Source: an uncultured Candidatus Saccharibacteria bacterium (GTDB taxonomy: Bacteria; Patescibacteriota; Minisyncoccia; Phycocordibacterales; UBA2100). Taken from it: a stretch of DNA of 64,000 nt. Location of the stretch: assembly GCA_964586255.1 (NCBI GenBank), contig CAZPGE010000004.1, positions 32,693 through 96,692 on the forward strand, given 5' to 3'. The notes under the pieces were generated by a model, which was not told the DNA's origin, searched no databases, and saw only the letters and a list, made by a program, of their open reading frames with translations. Below, one piece after another: positions 4,244-43,075 of the stretch. A program made the position numbers and the translations under genes. Numbering within the stretch: position 1 is the first letter of the stretch; each line of letters opens with the position of its first letter.

Positions 4244-4308
4244 TACAAAGCCCTCTTACGGCGTGTTCTAATATCACCCCCCTCCGTCCGCGCTCTAGAG
4301 CGAGAACG

Positions 4309-5037
4309 CTATTTGTTACCCCCGAATCGACGGCCCGAAAGCAGCTCCTGTCCTATCATAAAAAGGTTACTGGTGAGCCAATAGAGTGGCGCTGCAGCTG
4401 AGATGAAGTACGCGATGCCGGCGACCATGACGGGAAGAATGTACCGCGCCTGAAGATCAAACGTGCGTGCCATCTCTGCAGAGAACGATGCCTCAGCCGC
4501 CACCACAGACCCGCGCGGCCCCATAGAGAGTCGCGTGTAGATGAACTGTGAGATGCCCGCAAGTACGGCGAGCACCATACTCTTGCCCGCCATGTCGATG
4601 AGGCCAAGGAACTCCATGTTCACGTTTGCGGGTACCGGAACGAACGCGTAGAGAATATCGGCGTTGATGGTCGGCAATCCGCCGTTGGCGAACACGAAGT
4701 AGAGTCCGAGTAGAACGGGGAGCTGAATGAGGAGGAGAAGGAGCCCCGCAAACGGACTCACTCCACGCTCGCGGTACAGTGCGAAAATTGCTCGACCCTG
4801 TTCTTCCGGCTTGTCTTTGTATTTTTTCTTGAGCTCCTCAATCTCTGGCGCAACACGTTTCATGTCCATCTGCGCCTTGATCGCTTTGCGAGAAAGCGGG
4901 AAGAGAATAAAGCGGACGATGATAGTGACTATGATAACGGCGACACCCATGTCGTGCGTTGGGACCACGTCAACAAAGTACACGAGCGCGTTGTATATCG
5001 GGTCGTACACGACCGTATGGAAGAGAGTGCGTATCAT
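4309..5037 (-). CDS. yidC: membrane protein insertase YidC (short, Gram-positive/CPR-type)
   Basis: Multi-TM protein with YidC/Oxa1 signature. Part of the rpmH-rnpA-yidC-jag synteny. Confidence 0.85.
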   Translation of the reverse strand: MIRTLFHTVVYDPIYNALVYFVDVVPTHDMGVAVIIVTIIVRFILFPLSRKAIKAQMDMKRVAPEIEELKKKYKDKPEEQGRAIFALYRERGVSPFAGLLLLLIQLPVLLGLYFVFANGGLPTINADILYAFVPVPANVNMEFLGLIDMAGKSMVLAVLAGISQFIYTRLSMGPRGSVVAAEASFSAEMARTFDLQARYILPVMVAGIAYFISAAAPLYWLTSNLFMIGQELLSGRRFGGNK

Positions 5038-5070
5038 AGGGTGGGTTGCGGCGTATTGTACCGCCTCGGC

Positions 5071-5400
5071 TTACCGAGCGCTACGGACCTCGCGCAGTAG
5101 TGCCTCGATGTCGTGTGCAAGCTCCTGGTACGTTGCTTTCGCCGCATCTTTCTTTGCAAGAAACAGGTACACGCCAGGTGGCGTCAATTGTGCGCTCTTC
5201 TCAAGCACGGCGCGACATCGGCGCCGAATAAGGTTGCGCGTCACTGCTTTCATGGCGACCTTTTTTGACACGACGCACGCAAACTGTGCACTGCCCGTGC
5301 GCGATGCCGATATCGACACAGAGAAAAAACCGCCATGTAGACGGCGAGGGGAGCGCAGCTCCCTGATCTCGGCGCCCGTGAGGCGGTTTTTCTTTGGCAT
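5071..5400 (-). CDS. rnpA: ribonuclease P protein component
   Basis: Basic ~109-aa protein with an RnpA-like sequence, located immediately downstream of rpmH. Confidence 0.85.
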   Translation of the reverse strand: MPKKNRLTGAEIRELRSPRRLHGGFFSVSISASRTGSAQFACVVSKKVAMKAVTRNLIRRRCRAVLEKSAQLTPPGVYLFLAKKDAAKATYQELAHDIEALLREVRSAR

Positions 5401-5403
5401 CGT

Positions 5404-5544
5404 TTAAACGGAAGCGGAGAGGCGCTTGCGTCCTTTTGCGCGACGGCGGTTCAGAACCTTGCGGCCCACCGTGGTCGTCGTTCGTGAACGGAAGCCGTGC
5501 GCTTTGGCGCGCTTTTGCTTCTTCGGCTGATAGGTTCGTCTCAT
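5404..5544 (-). CDS. rpmH: 50S ribosomal protein L34 (46 aa; below the ORF-track size cut-off)
   Basis: Translation [46 protein letters not shown] matches the L34 consensus. The stop lies 4 nt before the rnpA start. Confidence 0.85.
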
Positions 5545-5822
5545 GTGCGCGACTATACGTTATATAGCGCCAGATTTCAAGCATTTTCACTCCTTACCCA
5601 TCATTGCAAGAGGGGAGGGGTTTCGTGAGGTGTCGCGCAGGCCGACGGGCCGAGCGGCAGCGCTGCGCGAGCACGCGCAGACAGCGACCTCACGAAACCT
5701 CCTCCCGTTTTGCGATGTCCACACCTTGTCCACAGGTTGTAAACATGGTCTCGCGTAGCGCATTCGCTTCCCAGCGCGAGCGACACGCGTATAATGCGTG
5801 AGCTTCGAAGACTAATGTACCT
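5545..5822. promoter_or_regulatory. rpmH/dnaA divergent intergenic region: candidate oriC part with two tandem DnaA-box-like 9-mers, a 13-17 bp inverted repeat, and a TATAAT -10 element for dnaA
   Basis: ATGTCCACA (5715-5723) and TTGTCCACA (5726-5734) resemble TTATCCACA. Inverted repeat GGTTTCGTGAGGT (5619-5631) / ACCTCACGAAACC (5687-5699). TATAAT at 5790-5795, 28 nt upstream of the dnaA ATG. Confidence 0.45.
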
Positions 5823-7175
5823 ATGATGACCAATCGAGAATTATGGCAGAACGCATTGGTCCAAATAGAACTCGGGACGACGCAGGCGTCGTTTAGAACC
5901 TGGTTTCGCAATACTGACATCGCAAATCGTGACGGGGGAGTCGTCCAAGTCGCCGTCCCGTCAAAGATTGTAAAGGAGTGGCTGCTTGAAAAACACCACA
6001 AGCTTGTTTTGAAGGCACTGCGCAGTCTCGACAACACCATCCGCACCGTTGAGTACGTGGTACACCGCTCCGCGCCGAGCGCCGAGCGAAAAGCTCCGCG
6101 CGCCGAGAAGCCCCAAGAGAATGCGTCGTTCGATTTACAATCTCTCTATATAGATAAGCGCGACAACCTGAACCCGCGTTACACTTTTGAGACATTTGTC
6201 GTCGGTCCCTTCAACCAACTCGCTCACGCGGCGGCAAAAGCGGTGCTCGATAGACCCGGCCTCACGTACAATCCTCTCTTTATCTATGGCTCCACCGGGC
6301 ATGGAAAGACACATCTCATACAAGCAGTGGGCAACTACTTCAAGAAAGCGCACGCCAACAAGAAAGTGCTCTATGTCACATCGGAGCGCTTTGCGGTGGA
6401 TTACATCAACTCCGTGCGTGCGGGACGAGCCAACAACTTCAAAGACCAGTACCGTCAGTACGACGTGCTCATCATGGACGACATCCAGTTCATTGCGAAC
6501 ACAGAAAAGACGCAGGAAGAGCTCTTCCACCTCTTCAACGCACTCCACGACAACAACAAACAAATCGTGTTCTCGAGCGATAAACACCCGTCACTTCTCC
6601 CCGGCTTTGAGGAGCGCCTCAAGGGCCGCTTTGCCGCGGGCGTGATTGCTGAGATACCCGAGCCCGACGTGGAGTCACGCATCGCCATCATCAAGGCGAA
6701 GATTGAGCAGCACGGCTTCTCAATCCCTGAAGACATCATCCAATACATTGCAGAGAACGTACGGGGCAACATACGCGAACTCGAGGGGGTACTCAATATG
6801 ATCGTTTGCAAATCGCAGCTCAAGGGAAAGGCAATATCCCACGCCGACGTGCGAGCGCTCATCAAACACAACGTAAAGCCCAATAGAGGTGTCTCTATAG
6901 ACGAGGTGGTCCGCAGGATAGCGCAATACTACGAAGTGCCGGAGAAGAGCATCTACGAAAAGACTCGCAAAAAGGAGGTGGTGAAGCCCCGTCAAATAAT
7001 CATGTACATGCTCCGAGAAGAATTTAGTGTCTCGTACCCGTCGATAGGAGAGAAACTTGGGGGTCGTGACCACACCACCGTCATCCACTCGTGCGAGAAG
7101 ATAAAGGAAGAGATAAAAATGAACAACGCACTCGAGCAAGAACTCGACCACATCCGTACTCTCATCCACGCATAG
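5823..7175 (+). CDS. dnaA: chromosomal replication initiator DnaA
   Basis: AAA+ Walker A 'GSTGHGKTHL', 'VLIMDDIQF', and a C-terminal DNA-binding domain. Confidence 0.95.
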   Translation: MMTNRELWQNALVQIELGTTQASFRTWFRNTDIANRDGGVVQVAVPSKIVKEWLLEKHHKLVLKALRSLDNTIRTVEYVVHRSAPSAERKAPRAEKPQENASFDLQSLYIDKRDNLNPRYTFETFVVGPFNQLAHAAAKAVLDRPGLTYNPLFIYGSTGHGKTHLIQAVGNYFKKAHANKKVLYVTSERFAVDYINSVRAGRANNFKDQYRQYDVLIMDDIQFIANTEKTQEELFHLFNALHDNNKQIVFSSDKHPSLLPGFEERLKGRFAAGVIAEIPEPDVESRIAIIKAKIEQHGFSIPEDIIQYIAENVRGNIRELEGVLNMIVCKSQLKGKAISHADVRALIKHNVKPNRGVSIDEVVRRIAQYYEVPEKSIYEKTRKKEVVKPRQIIMYMLREEFSVSYPSIGEKLGGRDHTTVIHSCEKIKEEIKMNNALEQELDHIRTLIHA

Positions 7176-7471
7176 TGTATGAACACAGCCTTCATTGGTA
7201 TTTCCGTCGATACACAGCGCGGCGTTGTTCGTGCACCGAAAAAAGTCTCTGTATATCCTGTGGAAAACACGGGGAGAGTGGTCGCACAACTCACGAATAA
7301 GTTTGCCGGAAAAGCCATGGCGCGAGTTACCCCCGTTTCATCCCCGCTTCACGCAAGAGTTTTCAACAGGTCACGTACAACTATTTCATCTAGATTCTGC
7401 GCGATATTTCCGACTTGTCCCCGCTATACACAGGACTAATAGTAGTAATAGAATATATAAGTAAAAAGTAT
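7176..7471. promoter_or_regulatory. dnaA-dnaN intergenic region with a DnaA-box-like site and an AT-rich stretch (possible DNA-unwinding element / second oriC module)
   Basis: TGTGGAAAA (7259-7267) is the reverse complement of TTTTCCACA. AT-rich 7380-7470 lies immediately upstream of dnaN. Confidence 0.3.
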
Positions 7472-8569
7472 ATGAAGATAACAACAACAAAAGAAAAACT
7501 TCTTAACGCGATATTGATGGTAGAGAGAATCACAGGAAAAAAAGAATCTCTCCCGATACTTTCTTGTGTTCTTATCGATACGACGAGTGACATAACACTT
7601 CGCGCTACAAATCTTGAAGCCGGTATTGAAGTGACCGTTCCCGGTGAAATATCAGAAAAAGGAGTTGTAGCTGTTTCAGCTACGATACTTTCACAAACTA
7701 TCCGCTCGATAGGTGGCGATAAAATATCGCTCTCAAGCGAAGAGGGGAATCTTCTTATCGAATCTCGCGGGACCAAGACACTTATAAAGGCAGTGCCTCA
7801 TGAGGAGTTCCCTGTGCTCTCAAGTGAATCAGGAAAATCAAACGTCTCTCTTTCCAGAGAGCGACTCATTCACGGTATTCAATCGGTTTCATACGCTGCA
7901 TCACCTTCGATGATTCGGCCGGACCTCGGAAGTATCTATATTTCTATCCAGGATGGTTCGATGGTCTGTGTCGCGACCGATTCGTTTCGTCTCGCCGAGA
8001 AGGTGGTTTCTGAGACCGGTTCTAAGACGTCGGATGAACTCCTTATCCCTCTCAAGCATGCACTCGAGCTCGTCCATGTACTCGAAAAACTCGATGATGA
8101 GAAGATTTCACTCTCGGCCGATGATTCACAGCTTGTTGTTGTGGGCTCCGGGACACGGTTTGTATCTCGTGTGGTCGATGCCACATTCCCCAACTATAAA
8201 GAAATTATTCCGAAAAAGTTTACGACTGAGGCCACAATGCTCAAAAATGACCTTGGTGAGATGCTCCGCAAAGCACGCGTGTTTTCAGGGAATGAGATGC
8301 ACGTGGGCCTCCATGTGTATCCGAAGAAAAAGATTTTTACTGCGACCGCGCGTAGTGCTGATGTAGGTGAGATGTCCGACTCTATCGATGCGGCCCTCTC
8401 AGGAGAGGATCTCGATATCAATTTCCACATAGGATATCTCGCCGACTGCCTGAGCTCTATCGCATCAGATTCTGTGATACTGAGTTTCTCCGGTGCAGGC
8501 CGTCCACTCGTGATTCGTGGTGTTTCGGATAGCAATTTCACATACCTGGTGATGCCACTCAACCGATAG
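7472..8569 (+). CDS. dnaN: DNA polymerase III beta sliding clamp
   Basis: 366 aa from the ATG at 7472, with three-domain clamp-like sequence. The ORF-track start at 7415 is probably an upstream extension. Confidence 0.9.
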   Translation: MKITTTKEKLLNAILMVERITGKKESLPILSCVLIDTTSDITLRATNLEAGIEVTVPGEISEKGVVAVSATILSQTIRSIGGDKISLSSEEGNLLIESRGTKTLIKAVPHEEFPVLSSESGKSNVSLSRERLIHGIQSVSYAASPSMIRPDLGSIYISIQDGSMVCVATDSFRLAEKVVSETGSKTSDELLIPLKHALELVHVLEKLDDEKISLSADDSQLVVVGSGTRFVSRVVDATFPNYKEIIPKKFTTEATMLKNDLGEMLRKARVFSGNEMHVGLHVYPKKKIFTATARSADVGEMSDSIDAALSGEDLDINFHIGYLADCLSSIASDSVILSFSGAGRPLVIRGVSDSNFTYLVMPLNR

Positions 8570-12116: not shown

Positions 12117-12464
12117 TTACCGTACGCAGAGATTCATCTTGATGGCGGTCACGTCGAACCCGAGGATTTTGCCGCGCTCGGTGGCAATCACGGGCACGCC
12201 ACGTCGTGCGATTTCGCGGACCTCCTGGTTGTCGGTCTTTTCGACGTCGATTTCGAAAAAGTCGACACCGATTGCCCTAAGGTACCAACGAGCAGCGTGA
12301 CACTGCGAGCACCAGGTAGTCATGTAGAGCACGACTTCCTGTGTCTGGCAGTGTGCCGTCTGCGCGGAAGCACTGCCCAAGCTCAGCATGGTCGCCAGAA
12401 TGGCGACGAGAATAATACGCATGACAGCGTCTCCATCTAGAGGGAACTGCTTACATAGTACCAT
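12117..12464 (-). CDS. secreted glutaredoxin/NrdH-like thioredoxin-fold protein (CxxC)
   Basis: 'TTWCSQCHAARWYL' CxxC motif plus 'VPVI'. Signal-peptide-like N-terminus. The true start is probably the internal Met ('MRIILVAIL', about 12422). Confidence 0.6.
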   Translation of the reverse strand: MVLCKQFPLDGDAVMRIILVAILATMLSLGSASAQTAHCQTQEVVLYMTTWCSQCHAARWYLRAIGVDFFEIDVEKTDNQEVREIARRGVPVIATERGKILGFDVTAIKMNLCVR

Positions 12465-19955: not shown

Positions 19956-21647
19956 CTACGAAATCGTCTCAAGCATGACCTCGTCGTTGAGGTCGACGAC
20001 GCGGGAGAGTTCGTCGTACGAGGTGACACCTTGGAGTATCTTCACCGCACCGTCTTGTGACATGCGGCGGATTTTCTGATGCTTCGCTGCGGCCCAGATA
20101 TCGCGTTCGCTCGATGAGTGGCGCACGCACTCTTCTATTTCTTTATCCATAAGAATCACTTCCACTACGGCGATGCGTCCTTTGTATCCGAGGCCGCCGC
20201 ATTTGTCGCAGCCTTTGGGGAGCCACATGGTGTCGCGATTTTGCGGGAGCTCATCGGCGTGCGGTATGTGCGCGAGGAGCTGCTCCATCTTCGTCTTGAT
20301 ATCGCCGGTAATCGGTGTCGGTACGCGGCACACGGGGCAGAGGCGGCGCACGAGGCGCTGCGCCATCGCGGTCGTGAGAGCAGCGCCGAGGATGTCCGGC
20401 GCGACACCCATATCGACGAGGCGGGGGAATGTACCTGCTGCATCGTTGGTGTGTAGCGTGGAGAACACGAGGTGACCGGTAAGCGATGCGTTGACCGCCG
20501 TCGAAGCGACTTCAGCATCGCGGATTTCGCCGACCATGATGATGTCGGGGTCTTGGCGGAGTGTGGAGCGGAGGCCCTGTGCAAAGGTGTAATCCCGTGA
20601 GACTTGTGTCTGCACGATACCGGGCAGGTGGTATTCGACCGGGTCTTCGATGGTGACTATCTTTATTTCCGGTGAGTGCACTTGGCGCAAGAATGCGTAG
20701 AGTGTCGTCGTCTTACCGCTGCCGGTCGGTCCTGTGTTGAGAATCATACCGTTGGGCTTTGCGATTTCTTTCGCGAAAATATCCATGAGGTATTTGTCGA
20801 AGCCGAGCGCTTCCATCGGGAGTGCAATCGTCGTCGGGTCGAGGAGGCGCATGACGATAGTCTCTGCGTACGAGCCTGGGAGTACCGATGCGCGTATTTC
20901 GACTTCTTTACCACCCACCACGATAGAGAAGCGGCCGTCTTGTGCCGCGTTTTTGATGTTGAGCTTGAGGCCCGAGAGCAGCTTGAGGCGGCTCGACACG
21001 AGTGAGTATGTGGCGGCGTCAAACATGAGCACCTCCACGAGCACGCCGTCGAGGCGATAGCGCATACGCACACCTTCTTCTTCCGGCTCGAGGTGCACGT
21101 CGGATGCACCGAGCGCGAGTGCGCCGGCCATGATGATTTCGAGCACGCGTGAGATGCGGTGCGCGTCTTTGCTGCCCGTGTGGCTCGCAATCTCTGTCTT
21201 TACATCCTGGAGCGTCTTGAGCTTCTCAAGCATTTGTTGAATCGTCTCGTTGGAGAGGGTGAGGATGCCTGCTTCCGTCTCGGTCGCGTATGAAAGGTCG
21301 TGAAAGCGGTCCCACGCGTGTTCGAGCGAGGCCTGAGAGACGATAAAGCGCCGCACCTCGTAGCCGAGGCGTTCGATAGTCTGGAGCGACTTGAGCGAAT
21401 CCTCGCGCTCTGGAGCGCGCATTCCTACGAAAATGATTTTATTCACCTTGCGAAAAGGGGCGATCTCCACCGCGCGCGCCTCGTCCTCAGGTACGAGCTT
21501 GAGCGCATCGGTATCGATGGATTTGCTCGTAAGGTCGACGTACTCGACGCCGTATCGATGCGAGAGCATCTCGGCGAGCTGCTCCTCCTCTTTTGCGCGC
21601 AGCTCAGTCAGGCGCTCCGCTGCTTTCTTGTCGTTGAACGTCGCCAT
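19956..21647 (-). CDS. pilB: type IV pilus assembly ATPase PilB (GspE family)
   Basis: 'GPTGSGKTTTL' Walker A, Asp/His boxes, and a tetracysteine 'CPVC...CDKCGG'. ATG at 21647; the ORF track extends to an upstream GTG at 21665. Confidence 0.85.
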   Translation of the reverse strand: MATFNDKKAAERLTELRAKEEEQLAEMLSHRYGVEYVDLTSKSIDTDALKLVPEDEARAVEIAPFRKVNKIIFVGMRAPEREDSLKSLQTIERLGYEVRRFIVSQASLEHAWDRFHDLSYATETEAGILTLSNETIQQMLEKLKTLQDVKTEIASHTGSKDAHRISRVLEIIMAGALALGASDVHLEPEEEGVRMRYRLDGVLVEVLMFDAATYSLVSSRLKLLSGLKLNIKNAAQDGRFSIVVGGKEVEIRASVLPGSYAETIVMRLLDPTTIALPMEALGFDKYLMDIFAKEIAKPNGMILNTGPTGSGKTTTLYAFLRQVHSPEIKIVTIEDPVEYHLPGIVQTQVSRDYTFAQGLRSTLRQDPDIIMVGEIRDAEVASTAVNASLTGHLVFSTLHTNDAAGTFPRLVDMGVAPDILGAALTTAMAQRLVRRLCPVCRVPTPITGDIKTKMEQLLAHIPHADELPQNRDTMWLPKGCDKCGGLGYKGRIAVVEVILMDKEIEECVRHSSSERDIWAAAKHQKIRRMSQDGAVKILQGVTSYDELSRVVDLNDEVMLETIS

Positions 21648-21703
21648 GGCGCTATTGTAACGCACTTCGCTCGTGAACGAGGTGTTACAATTTGCTCATC
21701 TAT

Positions 21704-27121: not shown

Positions 27122-28870
27122 ATGCTCAAACAAATGCGAACAGCTTTTGTTGTCGTCTTTCTTAGTATCGTCGTCTCTGCTGTGTTTCTAGGCGCCCTTT
27201 CTTACATGCCACGTGAGACTGGGGCACTCTTCATGGACGCAGACATGATGTATTGCATCGGCTTGCCGTGCCCGTGTGGCAAAGGACCAGGTGGGAATCC
27301 CCCATCACCTTGCGGGGGCGTGGGGAAAGGCGTCCTTCAATGTCCATGCAAAGATTTGACAAGCGGATTCAGTACTACGGGGAAATGCTCTGCAGTCGGC
27401 GTTTGTACAGCTTCGGGCACGAGCGGTAAGGATGGTTTCGGTCTCGACCAAGTTTCGAAGATTCTCGGCGATCTCATGGGGAAGCTCATGGGGCAAAAAG
27501 GGGGGGATACGGCGCAACCGCCTCCACCGCCGGGCGGAGACACAGCCAGCAAGATTCCCCCCACATGTACACTCACCTCTAGTACGGTTTCTTCCAATGC
27601 ATCGTCCACCACAGCGACGCTCTCGTGGTCGAGCTCGTATGAAGCTACGAGCGCTTCGATAACGCCCAACATTGGCACCGTCTCAGTCAATGGCTCCCAA
27701 TCGATTACTATCACTGAGACGACCCCATACTCCATGTCGGTGACTGGGCCAGGAGGTACAGGGTACTGCTCTTCGATTGTGGTGGGTTTTGGCGACGGAA
27801 GCACAGACAAGTGCTCGGGCATCTTCGCAGATATCTATGGATGTGAAGATGATGGCGACGATGACGAAGAAACACCGGACACCAGCACTACGACCCCGGG
27901 TCTTTCGGCGAGTCCAACAGGTGGCACGGCACCTCTCACTGTCGTATTCACAGGCAATGCAGGCAGTGCGGGGTACACCATCAAGTATGGTGACGGTAAG
28001 ACCAATGCGGTCGGTTGCGAACACGGAAGCTGCTCACCGAGCGCTTCGCCACTCACCATCAACAGGAGTCACGTGTATGAACAGCCAGGTACGTACACCG
28101 CGAAGCTTCTCAAGCACTTCACCTCCGTGCAATCAAATTGCGCGGGCGAGGATTGCAACGCAATCGATTCCGTCACGATTACAGTCACCGCGCAGCAGAC
28201 TACTTCCGGTACGACGAACACGACAAGCTCAACAACCGTCCCTGTGTTCTCGAACCCCGCGTACCTATTGCCGGGCTTAAGGGGAGATATCAAAATGTTG
28301 AATTCTGGCGGCACGGTCGTCGTGGGTGCGCGCAATCAAAACAACACGGAGGTAGCAGGATTTTACGGCGGCACTACGTTCTCCGGGCCTGCGACTGGCG
28401 TGGTGGCGACGCTCTGCCGCACGCGACCGTGGGCAGGTAACTTCCTCTCGTATATACTCCCGGCCAATTTCTTTGACAGTCTCTGTGTCGCACGCGGCTA
28501 CACCGTCGGTGCGCCTGCTACTCAGCAGACAAGCGGCAGCGCGCAGACGACGGGCACGTCTCAGGCCAAGCCAAAGCCGACACAGAAGCCCGCAACTTCG
28601 ACCCCATCTGTATCCAATGTTCCTCCCAAAGTGCGGGTATGGGCAGTGCCGTCTACGGTGCCACTTGGCTCTCGTGCTTCGGTATTCTGGACTTCGCAGG
28701 GTGTGGCGAGCTGTCTCGTGGCGAGCCCAGACGGAAGTTTCTCTCAGACGACACTCTCTGGAGGTGCGTCCACTGTATCTCTCACGGGACCGACCACGTT
28801 TACGATTTCATGCCTCACCGCAGATGGGACTCCCATCACTGACTTCGTGACAATCAATCTCGCGATCTAG
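27122..28870 (+). CDS. Cys-rich, Ser/Thr-rich cell-surface protein with an N-terminal membrane anchor and Ig-like C-terminal modules
   Basis: N-terminal TM. Many Cys, a poly-P/G linker and an acidic DDGDDDEE stretch. The C-terminal about 85-aa module ('VWAVPSTVPLGSRASVFWTSQGVASCLVASP...ISCLTADG') is homologous to modules in the 35720 protein. Confidence 0.5.
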   Translation: MLKQMRTAFVVVFLSIVVSAVFLGALSYMPRETGALFMDADMMYCIGLPCPCGKGPGGNPPSPCGGVGKGVLQCPCKDLTSGFSTTGKCSAVGVCTASGTSGKDGFGLDQVSKILGDLMGKLMGQKGGDTAQPPPPPGGDTASKIPPTCTLTSSTVSSNASSTTATLSWSSSYEATSASITPNIGTVSVNGSQSITITETTPYSMSVTGPGGTGYCSSIVVGFGDGSTDKCSGIFADIYGCEDDGDDDEETPDTSTTTPGLSASPTGGTAPLTVVFTGNAGSAGYTIKYGDGKTNAVGCEHGSCSPSASPLTINRSHVYEQPGTYTAKLLKHFTSVQSNCAGEDCNAIDSVTITVTAQQTTSGTTNTTSSTTVPVFSNPAYLLPGLRGDIKMLNSGGTVVVGARNQNNTEVAGFYGGTTFSGPATGVVATLCRTRPWAGNFLSYILPANFFDSLCVARGYTVGAPATQQTSGSAQTTGTSQAKPKPTQKPATSTPSVSNVPPKVRVWAVPSTVPLGSRASVFWTSQGVASCLVASPDGSFSQTTLSGGASTVSLTGPTTFTISCLTADGTPITDFVTINLAI

Positions 28871-31955: not shown

Positions 31956-32426
31956 ATGAAAGAAGTGGCAGTACTTTTGCACAACATTCGGAGCGCATAC
32001 AATGTGGGCTCGATATTCCGCACCTGTGATGCGGCGGGCGTCACGCATGTCTATTTGAGCGGCTATACGCCGCGTCCCATCGACCGATTCGGTCGATCGC
32101 AGAAAGATATCGCCAAGACGGCTCTTGGTGCCGAGACGTCAGTACCGTGGCACTTTGTGAAATCTCCCGGCCCACTTCTGCGCGCAGCGCGCGCAGACGG
32201 GTGGTGTATTGTCGGCATCGAGCAACATGCGCACTCGACTGATTATCGGGCGCTCAAGAAAGGGGAGCGGACACTTTTTATTCTTGGCAATGAAGTGCGA
32301 GGCATTTCTTCACAGTTGCTCGCGAATTGCGACGAAATCGTCGAGATACCCATGCATGGGAAGAAAGAGTCACTCAATGTTTCGGTCGCCGCCGGTGTAG
32401 TGCTCTTTGGTACGCTCGAGAATTAG
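31956..32426 (+). CDS. SpoU/TrmH-family RNA 2'-O-methyltransferase (TrmL-like size)
   Basis: 'NVGSIFRTCDAAGV', 'LGNEVRGIS' and 'IPMHGKKESLNVSVAAGVVLF' are SPOUT motifs. Confidence 0.75.
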   Translation: MKEVAVLLHNIRSAYNVGSIFRTCDAAGVTHVYLSGYTPRPIDRFGRSQKDIAKTALGAETSVPWHFVKSPGPLLRAARADGWCIVGIEQHAHSTDYRALKKGERTLFILGNEVRGISSQLLANCDEIVEIPMHGKKESLNVSVAAGVVLFGTLEN

Positions 32427-33397
32427 TACGTTACAGAATCGACCGTCTGGCCGTTTTCATCGAGTAGACGGATGACATCGTGCGTGTTACCCCACAGCTC
32501 GACTGGTGAACCAAGGTAGAGCCGCCATGTATCAAGGGCAAAATTTGCTTCATGGCGATATGTCTGTACGCAGCCGTTGTACGAGAATGTGTTAGCGATA
32601 TATATGCGACACGCAGGTGCGAGCGATGTAGGAATGGTCGTCGGGTACGTGCACTGGGGAAGAGATTGCACATAATCTACGCAGTCACCACCGTACCGTA
32701 AAAGATTTTGATCGGTAAGCGACATGCTCTCTGCGGGTGAGGGGCATGCATTGGCGAGCGACGGCTCAAACGAGAGATTCTGTGCAAGGTATCCGGTGCA
32801 CCTGTTTTCACGGAACGAGACGCCGGCAGGGGAGAAGCCCGAAATCACAATAGCGCTCGTGCCCGGCTCAAGCGAAACAGTGCGGACGTTGTTGAGTGTG
32901 CCATGCTCGTATACCGTCGTGGCAAGAGGAATCGGAGCGATAGCTCCGGTGAGCATGCTCATGAGTGACCACCCGGCGAGAGATGCGCCTCCAGAAGCAT
33001 CGATGACGAGATATTCATTTGAAGCGGCTGCTTCTGTTGCCGCAGCGCGAGAGAGGGAGACCTTACCCGCATATGGCGACCGCCCGAGCTTAGCAACGTC
33101 TTTTTGGATTGAATCGTACTGGCGCTGCATTTCGTCGAGGCGTTCTTCGGCGCTCATGTTTTCATATGCCTCACCCTCTTGTGCGAGGCCCTCGATATCT
33201 GGGCCCTGAGGGATGGGGAGCTGCCAGGGGAGCTCAATTTTGTAGGTGGATGTGCTGGTGCCCCACAAAATGTCGATAGGATTGGCTATCGTTTTGACGA
33301 AGCTCACGATGCGCGATGCGCCACCAACCCACAGCCAGGCGCCCGCGAGAAGTATCACCATCCCAATAAGGACGTACCAGAGGACAGTGCGTACCAT
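32423..33397 (-). CDS. hypothetical membrane-anchored protein
   Basis: N-terminal TM (MVRTVLWYVLIGMVILLAGAWLWVGG). The start is taken at the internal Met so that it abuts the Mur ligase stop. Confidence 0.45.
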   Translation of the reverse strand: MVRTVLWYVLIGMVILLAGAWLWVGGASRIVSFVKTIANPIDILWGTSTSTYKIELPWQLPIPQGPDIEGLAQEGEAYENMSAEERLDEMQRQYDSIQKDVAKLGRSPYAGKVSLSRAAATEAAASNEYLVIDASGGASLAGWSLMSMLTGAIAPIPLATTVYEHGTLNNVRTVSLEPGTSAIVISGFSPAGVSFRENRCTGYLAQNLSFEPSLANACPSPAESMSLTDQNLLRYGGDCVDYVQSLPQCTYPTTIPTSLAPACRIYIANTFSYNGCVQTYRHEANFALDTWRLYLGSPVELWGNTHDVIRLLDENGQTVDSVTY

Positions 33398-33404
33398 GCA
33401 CGTA

Positions 33405-34640
33405 TTATAACGCTCCTCCGCGGAGTCGTTGTATCTCTTCTCGGGCAACCTCGGCGTCGCTCCACGGTATCTTCGCGCCGCCTTTTCCGTAGATAGGATC
33501 GATGCCTTTGCCTGTTATGAGGACAGTGTCGCCCGCACGTGCGATTGAAAAAGCCCTACGTATCGCCTCGCGCCGGTCGAGAATAATCTCAGGTCGCTTG
33601 GTCATCCCGGAAGCTATTTCATCGACGATTTTCTGGGGGTCTTCGTCGTACGGGTCGTCGTTGGTGAGTATCACGACCTCACACTTTTCCTCAGCGGTCT
33701 TACCCATGACCGGTCGCTTCCACGTATCGCGGCCGCCTCCCGCTGAACCGAGAAGACATATTTTTCTTCCTGGATACGCATCACAGAGGGCTGCGAGTGA
33801 GTCGGGTGTATGCGCGTAGTCCACGACGACGATAAAGTCTTGCCCTGCTTCGATGCGCTCGGCTCTCCCGGGGATGCGTGTAAGCGAGGCGAGCCCCTTT
33901 TGTATCGCATTGAGGTCCGCACCAAACGCGTACGCGACCTCGGCAGCGGCAAGTGCGTTCTTGAGAGAAAATTCTCCGGGCTGAGGGACGTCGATGACGC
34001 GTCCTTCGTAGGTGAATGTGCCACCGTCTGCCGATGCGTGCCAGGGTTCTTGTTTGGTGAGAGAAAATGCGATGCGAGATTCTATGGGCAGTGCGAGGTA
34101 TCGAGCAGATTCTTTGTCGTCGGCGCTTGCTATCACGGCTCGAGGGCGCTTCGCCGAGTTTGCAAGCGCGAGTCCGAGCTCGTACTTCGCATCTGCGTAC
34201 GCTTCATACGATCCGTGCGACTCGATGTGTTCGGGGGCAAGGTTGAGAAACACGAGTGCGTCGAGTTCGATTCCTCGATGTCGATGCTGTCGCGCACCCT
34301 CAGACGTCATTTCTATGACAGCGTACGTACATTTCTCGCGCACAGCATCACGCAAGAATTTTTGAAGCCGAGCTCTACCGGGCATCGAGCGCCCGATAGT
34401 GTTGCGCTGCTTCTTCTGCCCAATCTTGATTCGAATCGAATTTATGAGCGCAGTTTTCTCGCCCGTAGCCTCGAGTATGGAAGATATCATCTCACTTGTG
34501 CTGGTCTTGCCTTTCGTTCCCGTGACCGCGATGACTTTTATAGAACGAGAGGGGAAGCCATAAAGAAATGCACCGCCAAGCGCTATCGCGAGATGGTACG
34601 CGGAGATGAGAGAGTCGGGCAAGAATCTTCTCAAGAACAT
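33405..34640 (-). CDS. Mur ligase family protein (MurE-like, short N-terminal domain)
   Basis: 'VTGTKGKTSTSEM' P-loop. C-terminal 'TNDDPYDEDPQKI' and 'TGKG' resemble MurE motifs. Confidence 0.6.
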   Translation of the reverse strand: MFLRRFLPDSLISAYHLAIALGGAFLYGFPSRSIKVIAVTGTKGKTSTSEMISSILEATGEKTALINSIRIKIGQKKQRNTIGRSMPGRARLQKFLRDAVREKCTYAVIEMTSEGARQHRHRGIELDALVFLNLAPEHIESHGSYEAYADAKYELGLALANSAKRPRAVIASADDKESARYLALPIESRIAFSLTKQEPWHASADGGTFTYEGRVIDVPQPGEFSLKNALAAAEVAYAFGADLNAIQKGLASLTRIPGRAERIEAGQDFIVVVDYAHTPDSLAALCDAYPGRKICLLGSAGGGRDTWKRPVMGKTAEEKCEVVILTNDDPYDEDPQKIVDEIASGMTKRPEIILDRREAIRRAFSIARAGDTVLITGKGIDPIYGKGGAKIPWSDAEVAREEIQRLRGGAL

Positions 34641-35608: not shown

Positions 35609-35680
35609 GCTCCCGTCGTTCAACGGATAGGACGCATCCTTGCGGAGGATGTAATGTAGGTTCGATTCCTGCCGGGAGCA
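35609..35680 (+). tRNA. tRNA-Arg (anticodon GCG as read; unusual)
   Basis: Cloverleaf: acceptor GCTCCCG/CGGGAGC, D-loop AACGGATA, anticodon stem CATCC/GGATG, loop TTGCGGA, T-arm GTAGG-TTCGATT-CCTGC. Preceded by the rpsT terminator hairpin GAGTCTA-ggat-TAGACTC. Confidence 0.7.
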
Positions 35681-35719
35681 CAGATATGAGCGCAGCGAAA
35701 TAGTTGTGCTCGCAGAGAA

Positions 35720-38197
35720 GTGCGGGAGATTCCTGCAAAAAAGCAAAGAAAGAGGTTCTTTTCCCCACGCGTTTCATTGCGTCGCCTCGGCGCAGGGCGC
35801 ATCATGGTGGACATGAGGAAGCGCTTTACGAGTCGCGGTTATTCTATTCTTGCCGCGCTCGTATTCGTCGCGCTCTTGGGGAGCATCACGGTCGCCGTAA
35901 ATTTCGCCACTCCATCAGTCAATCGGATGGCGATGTCAGCACTTGCTCCCGCGACGGGCAACGTACCTACGAGTGCGCCTGCAAGCACGGGAAAGGAGAG
36001 CGGACAGAAACAGCAATGCCAACCCGGATACGATTATGTAGTGAACAAAGATTCGAAAGGAAAACCCCAGGTTGCTGCGCAGCCAGTCTGTCCGCCTCCG
36101 GGCGAAGCTCCCAAGGGTCCCGAACAGATAAAGAGCACTCAGCAGGGTGCGGCGGCGCTCGCCCTCGCGCCAGGCACATTCGGGGAGCGCAACGACCCGG
36201 TGCGATGCGAGCTTGATGCCAAGACCAAGCAGTACAAACCTAAGAGCGACTATAAGTGCAAGGTCAAATACTGCATACCGGTTGGCGGCAACAAAAGTGA
36301 GTGTAAAGAAGTAGATAATTTGTTTGGAGCGAATAGCAGTATCGATCCTTCGGCCGTAGAGAAAGAATTGAGAGAGCCTTTGATCAAAGATATTTTAAAG
36401 AATACCGACCCATCTGAGCATCAAAAACTTCTGGGCGAAATGGGGGTATCTTCAGCGGATCAAGACATATTGAAAAAAGCATATGAGGAAGACAAGACGG
36501 AGACAAAGGCTGAGATTGCACGGAATAACAACAGATTGTCCGAAATAGAACAGGCGCTTTCAAATTGCGCATACGGTGGATGTGATGAAGGGCGCAATGC
36601 GCGAGATGCAAAGTTGCTAGAGGCCGAAAAAGCGGCGCTCGACGCAAGAAATGAGTCACTGCAGAAGCGTCTCAGTGTTCTCTCAGCTGCTGAACAACAG
36701 CATCTTAAGCCCGGCGTAGTGCCTGGCACCGACCAACCGGGCGTTGCGCAGGTCTGCAGCACGGCAGGTGGATGTGTAGGGCCAGATGGCAGACCGGTGC
36801 CCAAAAACACTTTCCGTGATCCGGGACCTGCTGCGCCGCAGGGACCCGCGGGGCCTGATTCGCCAGCACCGAGAAGTGGAGGTAATCCGATGGGATCTCT
36901 TGGCTCGCTCTTGCAAGGGCTCTTGAAGGGATTGAGCGGCTCAGGTGCGGGACAGGGTGCTCCATGCGCGTCTGATCCAAACGCGTATCAGCAACAACAG
37001 CAGCAGTATCAGATGCAGATGCAGCAGTACAACTACCAGCTGCAGCAATATAATTACCAACAGCAACAAGCGGCCACGTTTGGCGGCCCGCAGCCCCTTG
37101 CCCCTGTGCCTCCAGCGGCATGCACGCCGAACGCGGATTCAAATACATGTCCTGCCGCTCCTGTGCAGCCGAAGACGGGATGCGCCAATGGCTCATGGAA
37201 GCCCGTGACTACACAGGGGTCAAATGGACGCCAGTGCACTACAAACTGGCAGTGCACGCCAAGCAACGCGGTCACGCCGACCGCGGAACTCTCATGCCAG
37301 CCAAAGGTCGCCGATGTGGGAATGTCAGTGGCCATATCTTTTTCATGCGCCAACGCGACAGGAAGCTCGGGTGCTGGCGGGGGATTCTCCACCGACAATC
37401 AAACATCGGGTTCGACGACGACCGTGATAGCGACCCCGCCGACGGGTGCTACGGGCATCACGTACGCGCTCACATGCCGCAACGAGAATCTGACTGCTCG
37501 CGCTGAATGTAGTGTGCAGATATCAAAACCGACCATCGTGTTACTTGCCAATCCGAAGAATGTTGTCTCTGGGGAGTCCTCGAGAGTCGGATGGGTGACC
37601 AGTGGCATGCAGTCGTGCGTCGTATCGAGCCCTCAGATGCCGGGTTTCACTACGCAAAACGCGAGCAATAAAAACGTAAATGGTGTCGCAACAACCTCGC
37701 CACTCACACGCAATACCACGGTGGTACTGACATGCCAGACTATCGGGGGTAGCACAAAAGCGGCTTCGACCACAATAGTGGTGGGCAACAGCACATCGAC
37801 ATCGGTCATGACGGTCTCGTCGACTATTGATGGTCGGACGGATGTAAAACATGGCGCCTCTACGACGATTTCATGGCAGACACCTTCGGCACCGTCCAAC
37901 TCTGCGGTCGCGCTCTGGCTCGTCGATTCTCAGAGTGGTCAGGCGACAGGACTCATCCACCGCTCGGCAAACACGTCGGGCTCGTACGTGTGGGCGATTC
38001 CGGCCACGAGCTCACCATGCGCAGTCGATTCTCCTGCAGTTTGTGGTGCGGATCTCGTCGTTGGTCGCACGTATTCGATACAGGCGTCGCTTTTCACACC
38101 TCCCAATGCGTATCTTGGCGGACTTCCGCCAGCAGACCCTATAACACCGACGTACCTCGACGAAGCATCTACGGCGAACTTCAAGGTGAGTAACTAG
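35720..38197 (+). CDS. large Cys-rich, Q/N-rich cell-surface protein with repeated Ig-like modules (N-terminal membrane anchor)
   Basis: GTG start per the ORF track; an alternative ATG is at about 35804. Poly-Q/N tract QQQQQYQMQMQQYNYQLQQYNYQQQQ. Repeated modules 'V.W.SxG..SCxV.SP...........LTC.T.GG' are shared with the 27122 protein. Confidence 0.5.
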   Translation: MREIPAKKQRKRFFSPRVSLRRLGAGRIMVDMRKRFTSRGYSILAALVFVALLGSITVAVNFATPSVNRMAMSALAPATGNVPTSAPASTGKESGQKQQCQPGYDYVVNKDSKGKPQVAAQPVCPPPGEAPKGPEQIKSTQQGAAALALAPGTFGERNDPVRCELDAKTKQYKPKSDYKCKVKYCIPVGGNKSECKEVDNLFGANSSIDPSAVEKELREPLIKDILKNTDPSEHQKLLGEMGVSSADQDILKKAYEEDKTETKAEIARNNNRLSEIEQALSNCAYGGCDEGRNARDAKLLEAEKAALDARNESLQKRLSVLSAAEQQHLKPGVVPGTDQPGVAQVCSTAGGCVGPDGRPVPKNTFRDPGPAAPQGPAGPDSPAPRSGGNPMGSLGSLLQGLLKGLSGSGAGQGAPCASDPNAYQQQQQQYQMQMQQYNYQLQQYNYQQQQAATFGGPQPLAPVPPAACTPNADSNTCPAAPVQPKTGCANGSWKPVTTQGSNGRQCTTNWQCTPSNAVTPTAELSCQPKVADVGMSVAISFSCANATGSSGAGGGFSTDNQTSGSTTTVIATPPTGATGITYALTCRNENLTARAECSVQISKPTIVLLANPKNVVSGESSRVGWVTSGMQSCVVSSPQMPGFTTQNASNKNVNGVATTSPLTRNTTVVLTCQTIGGSTKAASTTIVVGNSTSTSVMTVSSTIDGRTDVKHGASTTISWQTPSAPSNSAVALWLVDSQSGQATGLIHRSANTSGSYVWAIPATSSPCAVDSPAVCGADLVVGRTYSIQASLFTPPNAYLGGLPPADPITPTYLDEASTANFKVSN

Positions 38198-38664
38198 AGT
38201 CCGAAGAATTCTACAACTTTGTGTGTGAACGGTTCTTGCATGTGTCGTTCCTCGATGCGCTCTTTAAGATATGCGCGCACAAGTGATGGCTCTATGTGTT
38301 CTATCGGCAGAATCATATTGGGCGAGAGCCACTTCGTCGTGTCGATGAGGAGCATAGGGCTATCATCATGGTCGTCTTCGACCCAGAACGCGAGTATTTC
38401 ACGATACGGATGCATTTTTCCGTTGATACGGATTCCCTTATCCGAAAGTTCAAAATGCGCAATCTCCGGCGGAGTGCGAGAGATAAGCGCAAGTGTTCCG
38501 GCGGCCAGGAGTATCAGAAGCGCAAAAAAGAAATCCTGAAAAAGCACGCTTGTTACAGCGACAGAGATGGCGACAACACCAAGCGCCCAATACCAATCAC
38601 TGCCTCTTTCGATGTGCTCGTGTTCGTATGCGCTCCACCGAAGGACGACATTTTCTTCAGACAT
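38194..38664 (-). CDS. hypothetical membrane protein
   Basis: Start taken at the internal ATG (MSEENVV...). The ORF-track N-terminal extension runs through tRNA-Ser. Confidence 0.4.
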   Translation of the reverse strand: MSEENVVLRWSAYEHEHIERGSDWYWALGVVAISVAVTSVLFQDFFFALLILLAAGTLALISRTPPEIAHFELSDKGIRINGKMHPYREILAFWVEDDHDDSPMLLIDTTKWLSPNMILPIEHIEPSLVRAYLKERIEERHMQEPFTHKVVEFFGL

Positions 38665-38740: not shown

Positions 38741-38825
38741 GGAGGGGTGGCAGAGTGGTCTAATGCACCTGTCTTGAAAACAGGAGTGGGGCAACCCACC
38801 GTGAGTTCGAATCTCACCCCCTCCG
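38741..38825 (+). tRNA. tRNA-Ser (anticodon TGA), type II with a long variable arm
   Basis: Acceptor GGAGGGG/CCCCTCC, anticodon loop CTTGAAA, variable arm GTGGGGCAACCCAC, T-arm GTGAG-TTCGAAT-CTCAC, discriminator G. Confidence 0.85.
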
Positions 38826-38896
38826 CCTTCGCCTCGCAGTAGCTCGGCTTCGGCGTGACGCAGTCCGCAGAAGAAGAGCGAAGGCGGGAAAATAAT

Positions 38897-39139
38897 ATGT
38901 ATTACGCATATAGTCTAAGATGCAAAGATGGTTTCTATGTTGGCTGTACTGATGATATTCAAGAGCGATTAGAGCGTCACCAAAAGGGGCAGGTCCCTGC
39001 AACCGTAGATCGTCTGCCTGTCGCGCTTGAGTTCTACTTTGCCATTGAAGATAAGTACAAAGCTTTTGAGTTTGAGAAATATCTTAAGTCGGGTTCAGGT
39101 CGAGCATTTATCAACAAACATTTTGTTAAGATGAGCTAA
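38897..39139 (+). CDS. GIY-YIG nuclease-superfamily small protein (UPF0213-like), AT-rich
   Basis: 'MYYAYSLRCKDGFYVGCTDDIQERLERHQKG' shows the GIY...YIG motif. About 42% GC against about 57% for the flanks. Immediately 3' of tRNA-Ser. Confidence 0.65.
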   Translation: MYYAYSLRCKDGFYVGCTDDIQERLERHQKGQVPATVDRLPVALEFYFAIEDKYKAFEFEKYLKSGSGRAFINKHFVKMS

Positions 39140-41938: not shown

Positions 41939-43075
41939 ATGAGTTTGTCCTCAGGGCAGTCTGCTTTTGCACAGCGGACACGTTCTCTATCTCACGCACT
42001 CACGCGTGCCTTCCCCACACCATCGCTGCTTACGCCTCCGGCGGCAGGCATCGATATCTCGGACTCTTCCATAAAATGGATGGTCCTTTCCCCGCATCCC
42101 GAGACCCATCGCATCATCACATACGGCGAAATGCCGCTTGAGCAGGGGATAGTGACTGGCGGGATTGTTCGCGATGTGGCCAAGCTCTCAGCAGTCCTGC
42201 GCCAGGTCCGCTCGGAGCTTGGAGGCGTATCGAGCGTACACGCCGCACTTCCCGAAGAAGCAGCGTATGTGTTTGGCATGCATGTGCCACGAGGGACAGC
42301 GCGCCAACAGACGCTCCGCATGATTGAGTTTGAATTCGAGGATCGTGTGCCCATACCGCCATCTGCGGCTGTGTACGATTACAGCGTCATTCTTCCTCGC
42401 GACACCGAAGTTGATGATGAGATAAGCGTCGTGGTGTTTCCGCGAGAGATTGCGGAGGCATACACAGAGGCGTTTGAGAAAGCGGGGATAACACTCCTCT
42501 CTCTCGAGATTGAAGCTCGTTCTATCGCGCGGGCGGTCTCTTTGCGCACTTCTGATGAGCCCATCACCTTGCTTGTCGACTTTGGTCGCGCGCGAACAGG
42601 TTTTGCGGTTGTGAAGCACGGATATCCCATTTTCACTTCAACCGTCGAGGTGGGGGGTGATCTCATGACGTCGGCACTTATGCAGTCGCTCTCGCTGACC
42701 CCCGAAGACGCAGAGTTGTTCAAGAACGAGCACGGCCTTGTTCCTACTGAGGGAAAACTCGCGAAAGGTCTCGAGGTCGTGAGTGGCGTCGCTTCCGCGC
42801 TCGCAGAGGAAGTCGCGCGGCATTACCACTATTGGGATACGCGTCGCAACGATAAGGGTGAGCGCATGACCCCTGTAGGAAAAATTATTCTCATAGGAGG
42901 AAGTGCGAACTTGCGCGGACTGCCTGAGTATATTGCGGGTAAAGTGCACGCACCCACAGAGATAGGAAATGTATGGCAACACGTAACGAAGTTTGAAGAC
43001 TATGTCCCGCCGATAGATAAGCGAGAATCATTGCAATTCGCGACTGCTGTAGGTCTTGCATTGCGCGGCATCTAA
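41939..43075 (+). CDS. pilM: type IV pilus assembly protein PilM (actin-like ATPase)
   Basis: Actin-fold motifs ('GIDISDSSIKWMVL', 'LLVDFGRARTGFAVV', 'IILIGGSANLRGL'), followed by pilN/O-like genes. Confidence 0.8.
   Translation: MSLSSGQSAFAQRTRSLSHALTRAFPTPSLLTPPAAGIDISDSSIKWMVLSPHPETHRIITYGEMPLEQGIVTGGIVRDVAKLSAVLRQVRSELGGVSSVHAALPEEAAYVFGMHVPRGTARQQTLRMIEFEFEDRVPIPPSAAVYDYSVILPRDTEVDDEISVVVFPREIAEAYTEAFEKAGITLLSLEIEARSIARAVSLRTSDEPITLLVDFGRARTGFAVVKHGYPIFTSTVEVGGDLMTSALMQSLSLTPEDAELFKNEHGLVPTEGKLAKGLEVVSGVASALAEEVARHYHYWDTRRNDKGERMTPVGKIILIGGSANLRGLPEYIAGKVHAPTEIGNVWQHVTKFEDYVPPIDKRESLQFATAVGLALRGI

Follow-up and report, generated by a model that had tools for sequence, protein, structure and literature searches.

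Gene B and its predicted parts

The stretch analysed here (the window) comprises 64,000 nucleotides (nt) of contig CAZPGE010000004.1 from an uncultured Candidatus Saccharibacteria bacterium. We assign this chromosomal segment to an ultra-small bacterium of the Candidatus Kaiserbacteria (Patescibacteria). It encodes two Cys-rich, Thr/Ser-rich extracytoplasmic proteins, A and B, and this report centres on B, which carries a Gln- and Tyr-rich segment (the Q/Y tract) and has one immunoglobulin-like (Ig-like) module in common with A. Both open reading frames (ORFs) named in the original prediction, 27122-28870 for A and 35720-38197 for B, exist, and its account of their composition held: A contains 20 Cys (3.4%) and 26% Thr+Ser, and B contains 24 Cys (3.0%) and 18% Thr+Ser. 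Cys counts are even in both proteins and the Cys positions are conserved.

The listed ORF of B opens at GTG 35720. Because a tRNA-Arg gene just 5' of the ORF (35609-35681) ends at 35681 and B homologues begin with M-K/R-R (MKR or MRKRF), the true start is most likely ATG 35804 or ATG 35813, and GTG 35720 is unlikely. Residue numbers for B count from ATG 35804 throughout; those of the original prediction are 28 higher. A promoter and terminator scan around B gave results no better than shuffles. The parts of B are listed below with the neighbouring convergent gene. The AlphaFold2 (AF2) model was built for a single chain from a 15-sequence alignment, and its confidence is given as the predicted local distance difference test score (pLDDT).

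35804-38197, + strand: gene B, 797 residues from ATG 35804 (alternative ATG 35813; listed ORF 35720-38197)
35813-35902, + strand: N-terminal anchor, MRKRFTSRG-YSILAALVFVALLGSITVAV (family alignment; AF2 helix 16-25, low confidence)
36011-36313, + strand: variable Cys-containing beta-rich region, residues ~70-170 (AF2 strands 76-169; conservation 0.15-0.33)
36347-36703, + strand: long alpha-helical hairpin, residues 182-300, with C255/C260 at the turn
36710-36964, + strand: Pro/Gly-rich disordered linker (AF2 pLDDT <50 for residues 303-385 except helix 364-377)
36893-36934, + strand: amphipathic helix LGSLLQGLLKGL inside the linker, residues 364-377 (motif kept across the family)
36965-37069, + strand: Q/Y heptad segment C388-ASDPNA-Y395...Q422 (DNA, alignment, AF2 helix 392-426)
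37082-37264, + strand: Pro-rich stretch with a three-residue period, then a small Cys/Trp-rich beta unit (column composition; AF2 strands 464-471 and 477-485)
37271-37525, + strand: Ig-like beta-sandwich 1, residues 490-574
37526-37786, + strand: Ig-like beta-sandwich 2, the module common with A, residues 575-661 (AF2 pLDDT 81-87)
37805-38194, + strand: optional C-terminal beta-sandwich, weakly Kre9/KNH-like, residues 668-797 (AF2 pLDDT 81-91)
38194-38664, - strand: 156-residue protein with two transmembrane segments, convergent with B and overlapping it by 4 nt (synteny; no Pfam match)

Four Cys (C72, C152, C157, C167) are conserved in the N-terminal beta-rich region, and the small Cys/Trp unit contains C449, C460, G463, W465, C478, W482 and C484. 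The three C-terminal beta-sandwiches were predicted at pLDDT 75-91 and match Ig-like arrays structurally: GhpA, complement MG domains, ICAM and invasin. For the terminal domain, a scan of all 42 family members gave only weak Kre9_KNH matches. PF10342 matched 3 of the 42 homologues (best E 1.1e-4) and not the B of the window, and family member P0094 scored 20.1 bits against a cut-off of 24.6. The C-terminus of B reads ...STANFKVSN and that of A ...FVTINLAI; inspection of the translations showed LPXTG followed by a hydrophobic tail at neither.

The Gln/Tyr tract

The Gln-rich, CAG/CAA-encoded stretch of the original prediction was confirmed at 36986-37069, where YQQQQQQYQMQMQQYNYQLQQYNYQQQQ (Y395-Q422) is encoded by mixed CAG and CAA codons: TAT CAG CAA CAA CAG CAG CAG TAT CAG ATG CAG ATG CAG CAG, continuing TAC AAC TAC CAG CTG CAG CAA TAT AAT TAC CAA CAG CAA CAA. 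Seventeen of its 28 residues are Gln, compared with seven in the next-richest 28-residue stretch of any ORF in the window. The longest pure CAG run has three units, and Tandem Repeats Finder reported only a 21-nt (7-codon) unit in 2.1 copies.

In 40 of the 42 aligned relatives, some of them only about 30% identical, the segment keeps one length and has no indel, with the consensus C-[ST]-[ST]-D-P-N-x-Y-[AQ]-QQQQ-Y-x-x-Q-[LM]-QQ-Y-N-[YL]-Q-L-QQ-Y-N-Y-QQQ in these 40. It was the best-conserved 20-residue bin of B (majority fraction 0.84 in the 42-sequence alignment); the Ig modules reached 0.55-0.74 and the N-terminal half about 0.15-0.34. The motif was found in at least 96 of 172 scanned relatives. 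In more distant members the tract is replaced by a small Cys-rich unit, PQAPGTC..C.GNTLYSRNNQCVD..Q.CQYGC, and the preceding amphipathic helix is kept. Searched alone, the Q/Y segment gave no significant family in Pfam, NCBIfam or PDB sequence searches.

The closest relative, L003, has 84.5% DNA identity to B. Fifteen of the 35 codons of the segment differ between the two; all 15 differences are synonymous, none is non-synonymous, and CAG and CAA interchange. The L003-type tract was recovered independently from three metagenomes (SRR18595301, SRR6484324 and JGI 3300050232), and all three copies have the tract length and protein sequence of the window with 15 synonymous differences. Because every codon change relative to L003 is synonymous and CAG and CAA are freely swapped, selection acts on the protein sequence of the tract, not on a DNA repeat.

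AF2 predicted one 35-residue helix over residues 392-426 (pLDDT 62-80), bracketed by a conserved D391-P392 N-cap and by G427 (36 of 41). Tyr recurs at 395, 402, 409 and 416, an exact seven-residue spacing, in 38-41 of the 42 relatives, and Leu or Met stands at 406 and 413 in 36-40 of them; in heptad terms Tyr occupies the d positions and Leu/Met the a positions, with at least four heptads inside the predicted helix. Where relatives depart from the tract sequence they carry helix-forming residues (A, L, M, E, R), and seldom beta-branched ones. One divergent member, KYQQQREEYQSALDQYNYELRL, keeps the Tyr/Leu heptad with Gln swapped for Glu, Arg and Asp. Because the replacements are helix formers and the heptad survives the exchange of Gln in this member, the models and alignment together favour an alpha-helical, coiled-coil-type element rather than an amyloid-type one. 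Q-rich stretches have been described that form or extend coiled coils (PMC3674527, PMC4049302). Just beyond the helix, P431, P434, P437 and C440 are present in 29, 40, 42 and 42 of 42 relatives, placing a Pro at every third residue, and this periodic stretch would form one face of a polyproline-II helix.

The shared Ig-like module, gene A and the chromosomal neighbourhood

A and B had been described as paralogues with repeated Ig-like modules of about 85 residues. One such module is indeed homologous between them: BLASTP aligned the second Ig-like sandwich of B with the C-terminus of A (26/81 identities, 32%; E 5e-6). This was the sole aligned region, and paralogy over the full length was rejected since only one module aligns. 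The alignment scored z=11.4 above 1000 composition-preserving shuffles, and because 0/1000 shuffles reached its score the similarity is true homology, not low-complexity bias, the outcome that the original prediction had named as refuting. Reciprocal hidden Markov models (HMMs) of the module from the two families gave E 3.2e-7 and 2e-7, with no other match among the 580 ORFs of the window. The module spans about 85 residues with the motif W..T.G..SC.(V/I).S.P ... L.C.T and a conserved Cys pair in both proteins (C605/C644 in B); the joint alignment of A and B retains an invariant Ala, Trp, Cys, Gly and Cys. It is predicted to form a two-sheet sandwich and matches solved Ig-like domains. Repetition of the module within each protein was not borne out: self-BLAST found no repeats in A or B, module 1 against module 2 of B was marginal (z=2.9), and the extra sandwiches appear only in predicted structures. 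The similarity between the first Ig-like region of A and the shared module was not significant in a shuffle test.

The module was the last domain in 105 of 170 B-family members, and a further C-terminal tail of 61-200 residues followed it in 63 of the 170. Of 35 proteins with the module that the A-family search returned, 32 likewise had it as their last domain. One related locus (L027, 154-6294, + strand) encodes a 2046-residue protein that ends in the same module; in another (L028, 119-2425, + strand) a 768-residue protein carries two modules, each preceded by a small Cys/Trp unit as in B. Because the module ends otherwise unrelated proteins, A and B represent two different families that use one mobile, lineage-specific terminal module. 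Eighteen module sequences gave no significant Pfam family and no PDB sequence relative, and the module is undescribed in the Pfam/PDB families and the literature searched. Searching for homologues with the module profile gave 16 short fragments and nothing longer, too little to map architectures.

Gene A and its delimited domains are as follows.

27122-28870, + strand: gene A, 582 residues from ATG 27122 (GTG 27101 possible, giving 589 residues)
27899-28189, + strand: PKD-like domain of A, residues 260-356 in the 582-residue numbering (AF2 pLDDT 78-92)
28613-28867, + strand: C-terminal Ig-like module of A, residues 498-582 (AF2 strands 503-581, pLDDT ~66-77)

A begins with a putative signal peptide and a Cys-rich N-region, followed by an amphipathic helix, an Ig-like region, a PKD-like domain, a conserved domain and the C-terminal module, which holds much of the invariant sequence of A. 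N-terminal membrane anchors had been proposed for both proteins, and both do have hydrophobic N-terminal segments, but in A homologues this segment ends in Ala-x-Ala and looks like a cleavable signal peptide. The PKD-like domain scored 15.5 bits against a Pfam cut-off of 23.5, and homologues carry PF00801/PF18911. Foldseek matches of A included the in-situ S-layer protein 7ptp and, for the PKD-like domain, the archaeal S-layer PKD domain 1l0q. Residues 378-463 (28253-28510) form a strongly conserved domain, GLRGDI...NTEVAGFYG...LCRxRPWAGNFLSYxLPANFFDSLC, which includes a mostly conserved RGD tripeptide, matches no family and is modelled by AF2 with low confidence. An amphipathic helix with a Gly-rich stretch occurs in both proteins (A, 27443-27490, VSKILGDLMGKLMGQKGG; B, 36893-36934, LGSLLQGLLKGLSGSG) and the two look alike by eye. 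Their homology was rejected: an HMM of the B helix detected neither A nor any A homologue.

We found 41 close homologues of B in Kaiserbacteria and other Patescibacteria, none of which has been named for a function or has a precomputed Pfam domain. An exhaustive profile search of sequences clustered at 50% identity returned 304 representatives at E<=1e-30, 598 at 1e-10 and 1841 at 1e-3. Among GTDB species genomes, 24 loci were recovered, mostly titled Kaiserbacteria, Paceibacterota, Parcubacteria or 'uncultured Candidatus Saccharibacteria', and the close relatives of both A and B came from Candidatus Kaiserbacteria, Paceibacterota and Parcubacteria metagenome-assembled genomes. The B family falls into two length classes: about 650 residues ending at the module, and about 800 residues with an extra terminal sandwich. 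Because one member ends instead in Inhibitor_I9 plus Peptidase_S8 (subtilase), the C-terminus is an exchangeable position. Literature searches found no description of the B family or of the Q/Y motif.

The order of genes around B is SpoU, LTD protein, Mur ligase, RuvA, S20, zero to two extra genes, B, the 156-residue protein, riboflavin genes and, further on, PilM/N/O. Nearly every related locus that covers the stretch from SpoU to PilM/N/O keeps this order, and B is thus a vertically inherited gene in a core position. The pairing of B with the 156-residue gene is kept in almost every related locus. A and B are each single-copy in the window, and both lie in conserved core synteny. In six related loci (L012, L013, L015, L016, L017, L021) two module-bearing B-family genes stand in tandem between S20 and the 156-residue gene, suggesting local paralogue expansion. 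Upstream of B, 32423-33448 (- strand) encodes a membrane-anchored Cys-rich protein with a weak Lamin-tail-domain match (E 0.006), syntenic with B in most related loci covering that position.

The N-terminus of B resembles a prepilin signal. The family motif is [RK]G-x-S-[IV]-L-A-A-L-V-[FL]-V-x-x-L-G, with Gly12 in 41 of 42 members, and it provides the basic residue or residues, the Gly at -1 and the hydrophobic helix that follow one another in prepilins. The B anchor RG-YSILAALVFVALLG can be aligned residue for residue with RG-FTLIELLVVIAIIG (RG-F-T-L-I-E-L-L-V-V-I-A-I-I-G) of pilins from related genomes, except at Glu5: aligned B-family members have Ala, occasionally Pro or Gly, at +5, and none has Glu. 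N_methyl (PF07963) gave no match at E<=1 in the 42 members, and NCBIfam gave no TIGR02532-type match for B.

A and B had also been placed near pilus genes. A T2SSE/PilB-type ATPase (19956-21665) and PilM (41939-43075) are present in the window, but only loosely near: PolA, holA, UppP, Mur ligase, RuvA, S20 and riboflavin genes lie between the pilus genes and A/B. PilM/N/O lies 3.7 kb downstream of B in the window and is downstream in relatives too. Neither a regular expression nor tblastn with related pilins found a canonical pilin in the window. Six related loci (L009, L012, L016, L019, L021, L025) carry a canonical pilin of 135-143 residues (GFTLIELLVVIAIIG...) on the minus strand just beyond the 156-residue gene, two genes past the B homologue, and one further genome has a 324-residue N_methyl protein (Pfam annotation) in the same slot. 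The window has tRNA-Ser (38741-38827) and a GIY-YIG gene (38855-39139) there instead. The pilus context is thus weak in the window itself; an adhesin or host-attachment role and a link to pili may nonetheless be plausible.

A 115-residue protein encoded at 12117-12464 (- strand) has a signal-peptide-like N-terminus and a glutaredoxin-fold CxxC domain (PF00462, E 1.5e-10), and could be an extracytoplasmic thiol-disulfide oxidoreductase for Cys-rich A and B. Genomes of the Candidate Phyla Radiation are enriched in MdbA-like oxidoreductases (bioRxiv 10.1101/335083). Because of this enrichment and the CxxC protein in the window, extracellular disulfide formation in A and B is plausible.

Elsewhere in the window, 19-969 (+ strand) encodes a TraG/VirB4-type P-loop protein (PF19044, E 3.9e-15), type IV secretion-like, and 3241-3687 (+ strand) a type IV secretion system pilin (PF18895, E 2.6e-6), with two secreted or membrane proteins without a family match between them. 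The region 3734-8569 is a probable chromosomal origin, with dnaA at 5823-7175 and dnaN at 7472-8569; YidC/Jag/RnpA-like genes on the minus strand 5' of dnaA were identified from translations only.

A surface-display reading, its rivals and known systems

That B is an extracytoplasmic modular surface protein, and that its Q tract is a conserved structural element, is in our view highly probable. Beyond this core, we favour a fuller reading, to which we assign a probability of roughly 55%: B would be an anchored surface-display protein with a self-associating or rigid Q/Y stalk, partner-binding Ig modules and an exchangeable end. Within a large, unannotated family of such display proteins that is confined to Patescibacteria, it would be the Kaiserbacteria-type member. 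The gene, its family, synteny, conservation, fixed tract length, purifying selection and predicted folds come directly from the data; from its sequence and the models we infer the topology, disulfides, oligomerisation and binding function of B as follows. The conserved N-terminal hydrophobic segment would hold the protein in the membrane, and the remainder would be extracellular and disulfide-stabilised. Moving away from the membrane, a fast-evolving Cys/beta region would be followed by a helical hairpin and a flexible Pro/Gly linker, then by a strictly conserved stalk unit, two conserved Ig-like sandwiches and the exchangeable terminal domain. The stalk unit would combine the amphipathic helix, the 35-residue Gln/Tyr helix, the periodic Pro stretch and the small Cys/Trp knot, in which the Q/Y helix most likely self-associates as a Q-rich coiled coil, serves as a rigid spacer of fixed length, or both. 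The terminal domain, predicted as a Kre9/KNH-like sandwich here, is absent in most relatives and is a subtilase in one. The Ig modules of B, including the module common with A, may bind a conserved partner. Because several unrelated secreted proteins use the shared module as their last domain, its distribution points to recognition of a common conserved ligand or envelope partner, not of a variable host receptor.

Several observations weigh against this fuller reading. The distal Ig modules are better conserved than the membrane-proximal half, which is unusual for host-selected adhesins. For Q-rich sequence AF2 may predict a helix by default. Near-invariant Gln covers every face of the predicted helix, the b, c and f positions included, and Tyr411/418 add a second aromatic stripe at f; a simple two-stranded coiled coil would require less constraint than this. 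The model of B has a mean pLDDT of 66.5 and a predicted template modelling score of 0.30, and domain packing is therefore not readable from it. Pfam, NCBIfam and PDB sequence searches returned nothing significant for B, and no annotated or experimentally studied relative was found.

Two rival explanations concern the tract. The original prediction proposed to look for length polymorphism of the CAG/CAA run and named an assembly artefact as the refuting outcome; a strain-variable simple-sequence contingency locus, or such an artefact, has in its favour only the appearance of an imperfect CAG/CAA run with its 21-nt unit in 2.1 copies. Both are refuted by the length shared by 40 of 42 relatives, by a motif present in 96 or more of the 172 relatives and recovered from three independent metagenomes, and by codon differences that are synonymous in 15 of 15 cases; the uninterrupted CAG run of three is short, length changes in a trinucleotide repeat would in any case leave the reading frame as it is, and we give this explanation negligible weight. 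A prion-like or amyloid beta element is also improbable. In that case three amphipathic five-residue strands, Y-x-[YM]-x-[LM], split by QQ, would build a polar-zipper sheet between copies of B on the cell surface, in keeping with a prion-like Q/N/Y composition, the Y-x-Y-x-L alternation, the Gln kept on every face and the enrichment of bacterial candidate prion-like domains in cell-envelope proteins (PMC4606120). Against it stand the single AF2 helix, the preference for helix-forming over beta-branched replacements, an Asp-Pro N-cap and Gly C-cap that bracket exactly five heptads, and the divergent member in which Glu, Arg and Asp replace Gln and the heptad is intact. Length argues in the same direction, since typical prion domains are longer than the ~30 residues of the tract; prion-like domains are expected to be of at least about 60 residues, disordered and poorly conserved, and the tract is half that length, predicted helical and the most conserved part of B.

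Two others concern the whole protein. B could be a type IV pilus-associated, pilin-like subunit with a class III signal cut after Gly12, placed without Glu5 at the pilus tip with the Ig modules as its adhesive end; GspK-type minor pilins without Glu5 do sit at the tip. The position-by-position match to local pilins speaks for this, as do a motif (RG-x-S-[IV]-LAALV, with its Gly12) far better kept than a generic signal anchor needs, the six loci with a pilin and the further one with an N_methyl protein beside the 156-residue gene, and PilM/N/O downstream. Pili, moreover, play a central part in how cultivated Patescibacteria live as episymbionts (PMC9894109, PMC11623550). We nevertheless consider it distinctly unlikely: N_methyl and TIGR02532-type models do not match, the family has Ala, occasionally Pro or Gly, in place of Glu5, no pilin head follows the helix in the AF2 model (a low-confidence region), the pilin searches of the window found no such gene, and housekeeping genes separate B from PilB and PilMNO. 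Because the whole block is conserved core synteny, proximity to pilus genes carries little weight. Also unlikely is a structural role for both A and B as ordinary proteins that are secreted or associated with the wall, for instance in an S-layer or envelope scaffold, with the C-terminal module retaining them in the envelope and neither contacting a host. The extreme C-terminal position of the module in most carriers fits this, along with its standing as the most conserved part of A, the good conservation of the Ig modules of B, the single-copy genes in core synteny and the S-layer proteins (7ptp, 1l0q) among the Foldseek matches of A. On the other side, Pfam scans gave no match to SLH, LysM or Por_Secre_tail (PF18962), neither C-terminus has LPXTG, and the structural matches are to generic Ig-like folds. 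This scaffold explanation overlaps the surface-display reading rather than excluding it.

A bolder combination is a long shot: B as a tip or cargo subunit of a Kaiserbacteria type IV pilus, entering it through a Glu5-less prepilin-like signal, with the Q/Y helix (packed on the periodic Pro stretch as a reversed pancreatic-polypeptide (PP) fold, or a multimeric Tyr-ladder coiled coil) setting the stalk length and the Ig module recognising a conserved envelope glycan of the partner cell. To equate the 10.5-Å spacing of such a Tyr ladder with a glycan disaccharide repeat is pure speculation.

Patescibacteria account for a large part of bacterial diversity, and the cultivated ones live attached to other microbes by contact molecules that are largely unknown. 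The present analysis defines a sizeable, unannotated, lineage-restricted surface-protein family of about 300 clusters (50% identity) at E<=1e-30, together with a new Ig-like terminal module common to otherwise unrelated secreted proteins. The Gln-rich segment proved the opposite of what low complexity would lead one to expect, having fixed length, invariant residues and synonymous change only, and this cautions against taking CAG/CAA runs in bacterial genes for unstable repeats. The stalk peptide, the terminal module and the processing of the N-terminus offer testable targets for the Kaiserbacteria cell surface.

Several known systems resemble B in part. Like Q-rich coiled coils, the tract is Gln-dominated, predicted helical and has heptad-spaced hydrophobics; unlike these and prion-like Q/N domains, it has a fixed length of ~30 residues with strong purifying selection at every position, is extracellular by our reading, and is flanked by conserved Cys. 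In the PP fold, a Pro-x-x-Pro polyproline-II helix packs against an alpha-helix that carries Tyr at i and i+7. B likewise has Tyr every seven residues on a helix and an adjacent Pro every three (P431/P434/P437, then C440), but the order is reversed, with the helix first and twice the length, so that the likeness goes no further than a resemblance. With type IV pilins (PF07963/TIGR02532) B has in common the basic residue and Gly, the hydrophobic helix and a Gly at +14, and it differs in lacking Glu5, an HMM match in any of the 42 members and a predicted pilin head. The C-terminal domain of some B homologues matches Kre9/KNH (PF10342) weakly and the central domain of A is PKD-like (PF00801/PF18911), with the proteins of the window below Pfam thresholds; these are accessory domains, neither of them the shared module or the Q/Y element. 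Modular Ig-like bacterial surface proteins are known as a general kind; the libraries and literature searched contain no description of the B family, its terminal module or the invariant Gln/Tyr heptad helix. To the Gram-positive stalk-and-Ig proteins and their like (invasin/intimin-type, MSCRAMM-type and the GhpA grappling-hook arrays) B has no sequence relationship, and it has no match to a Pfam Ig family. Its anchor is an N-terminal transmembrane segment, not LPXTG or a beta-barrel, and only the stalk of B has a conserved Gln/Tyr heptad helix.

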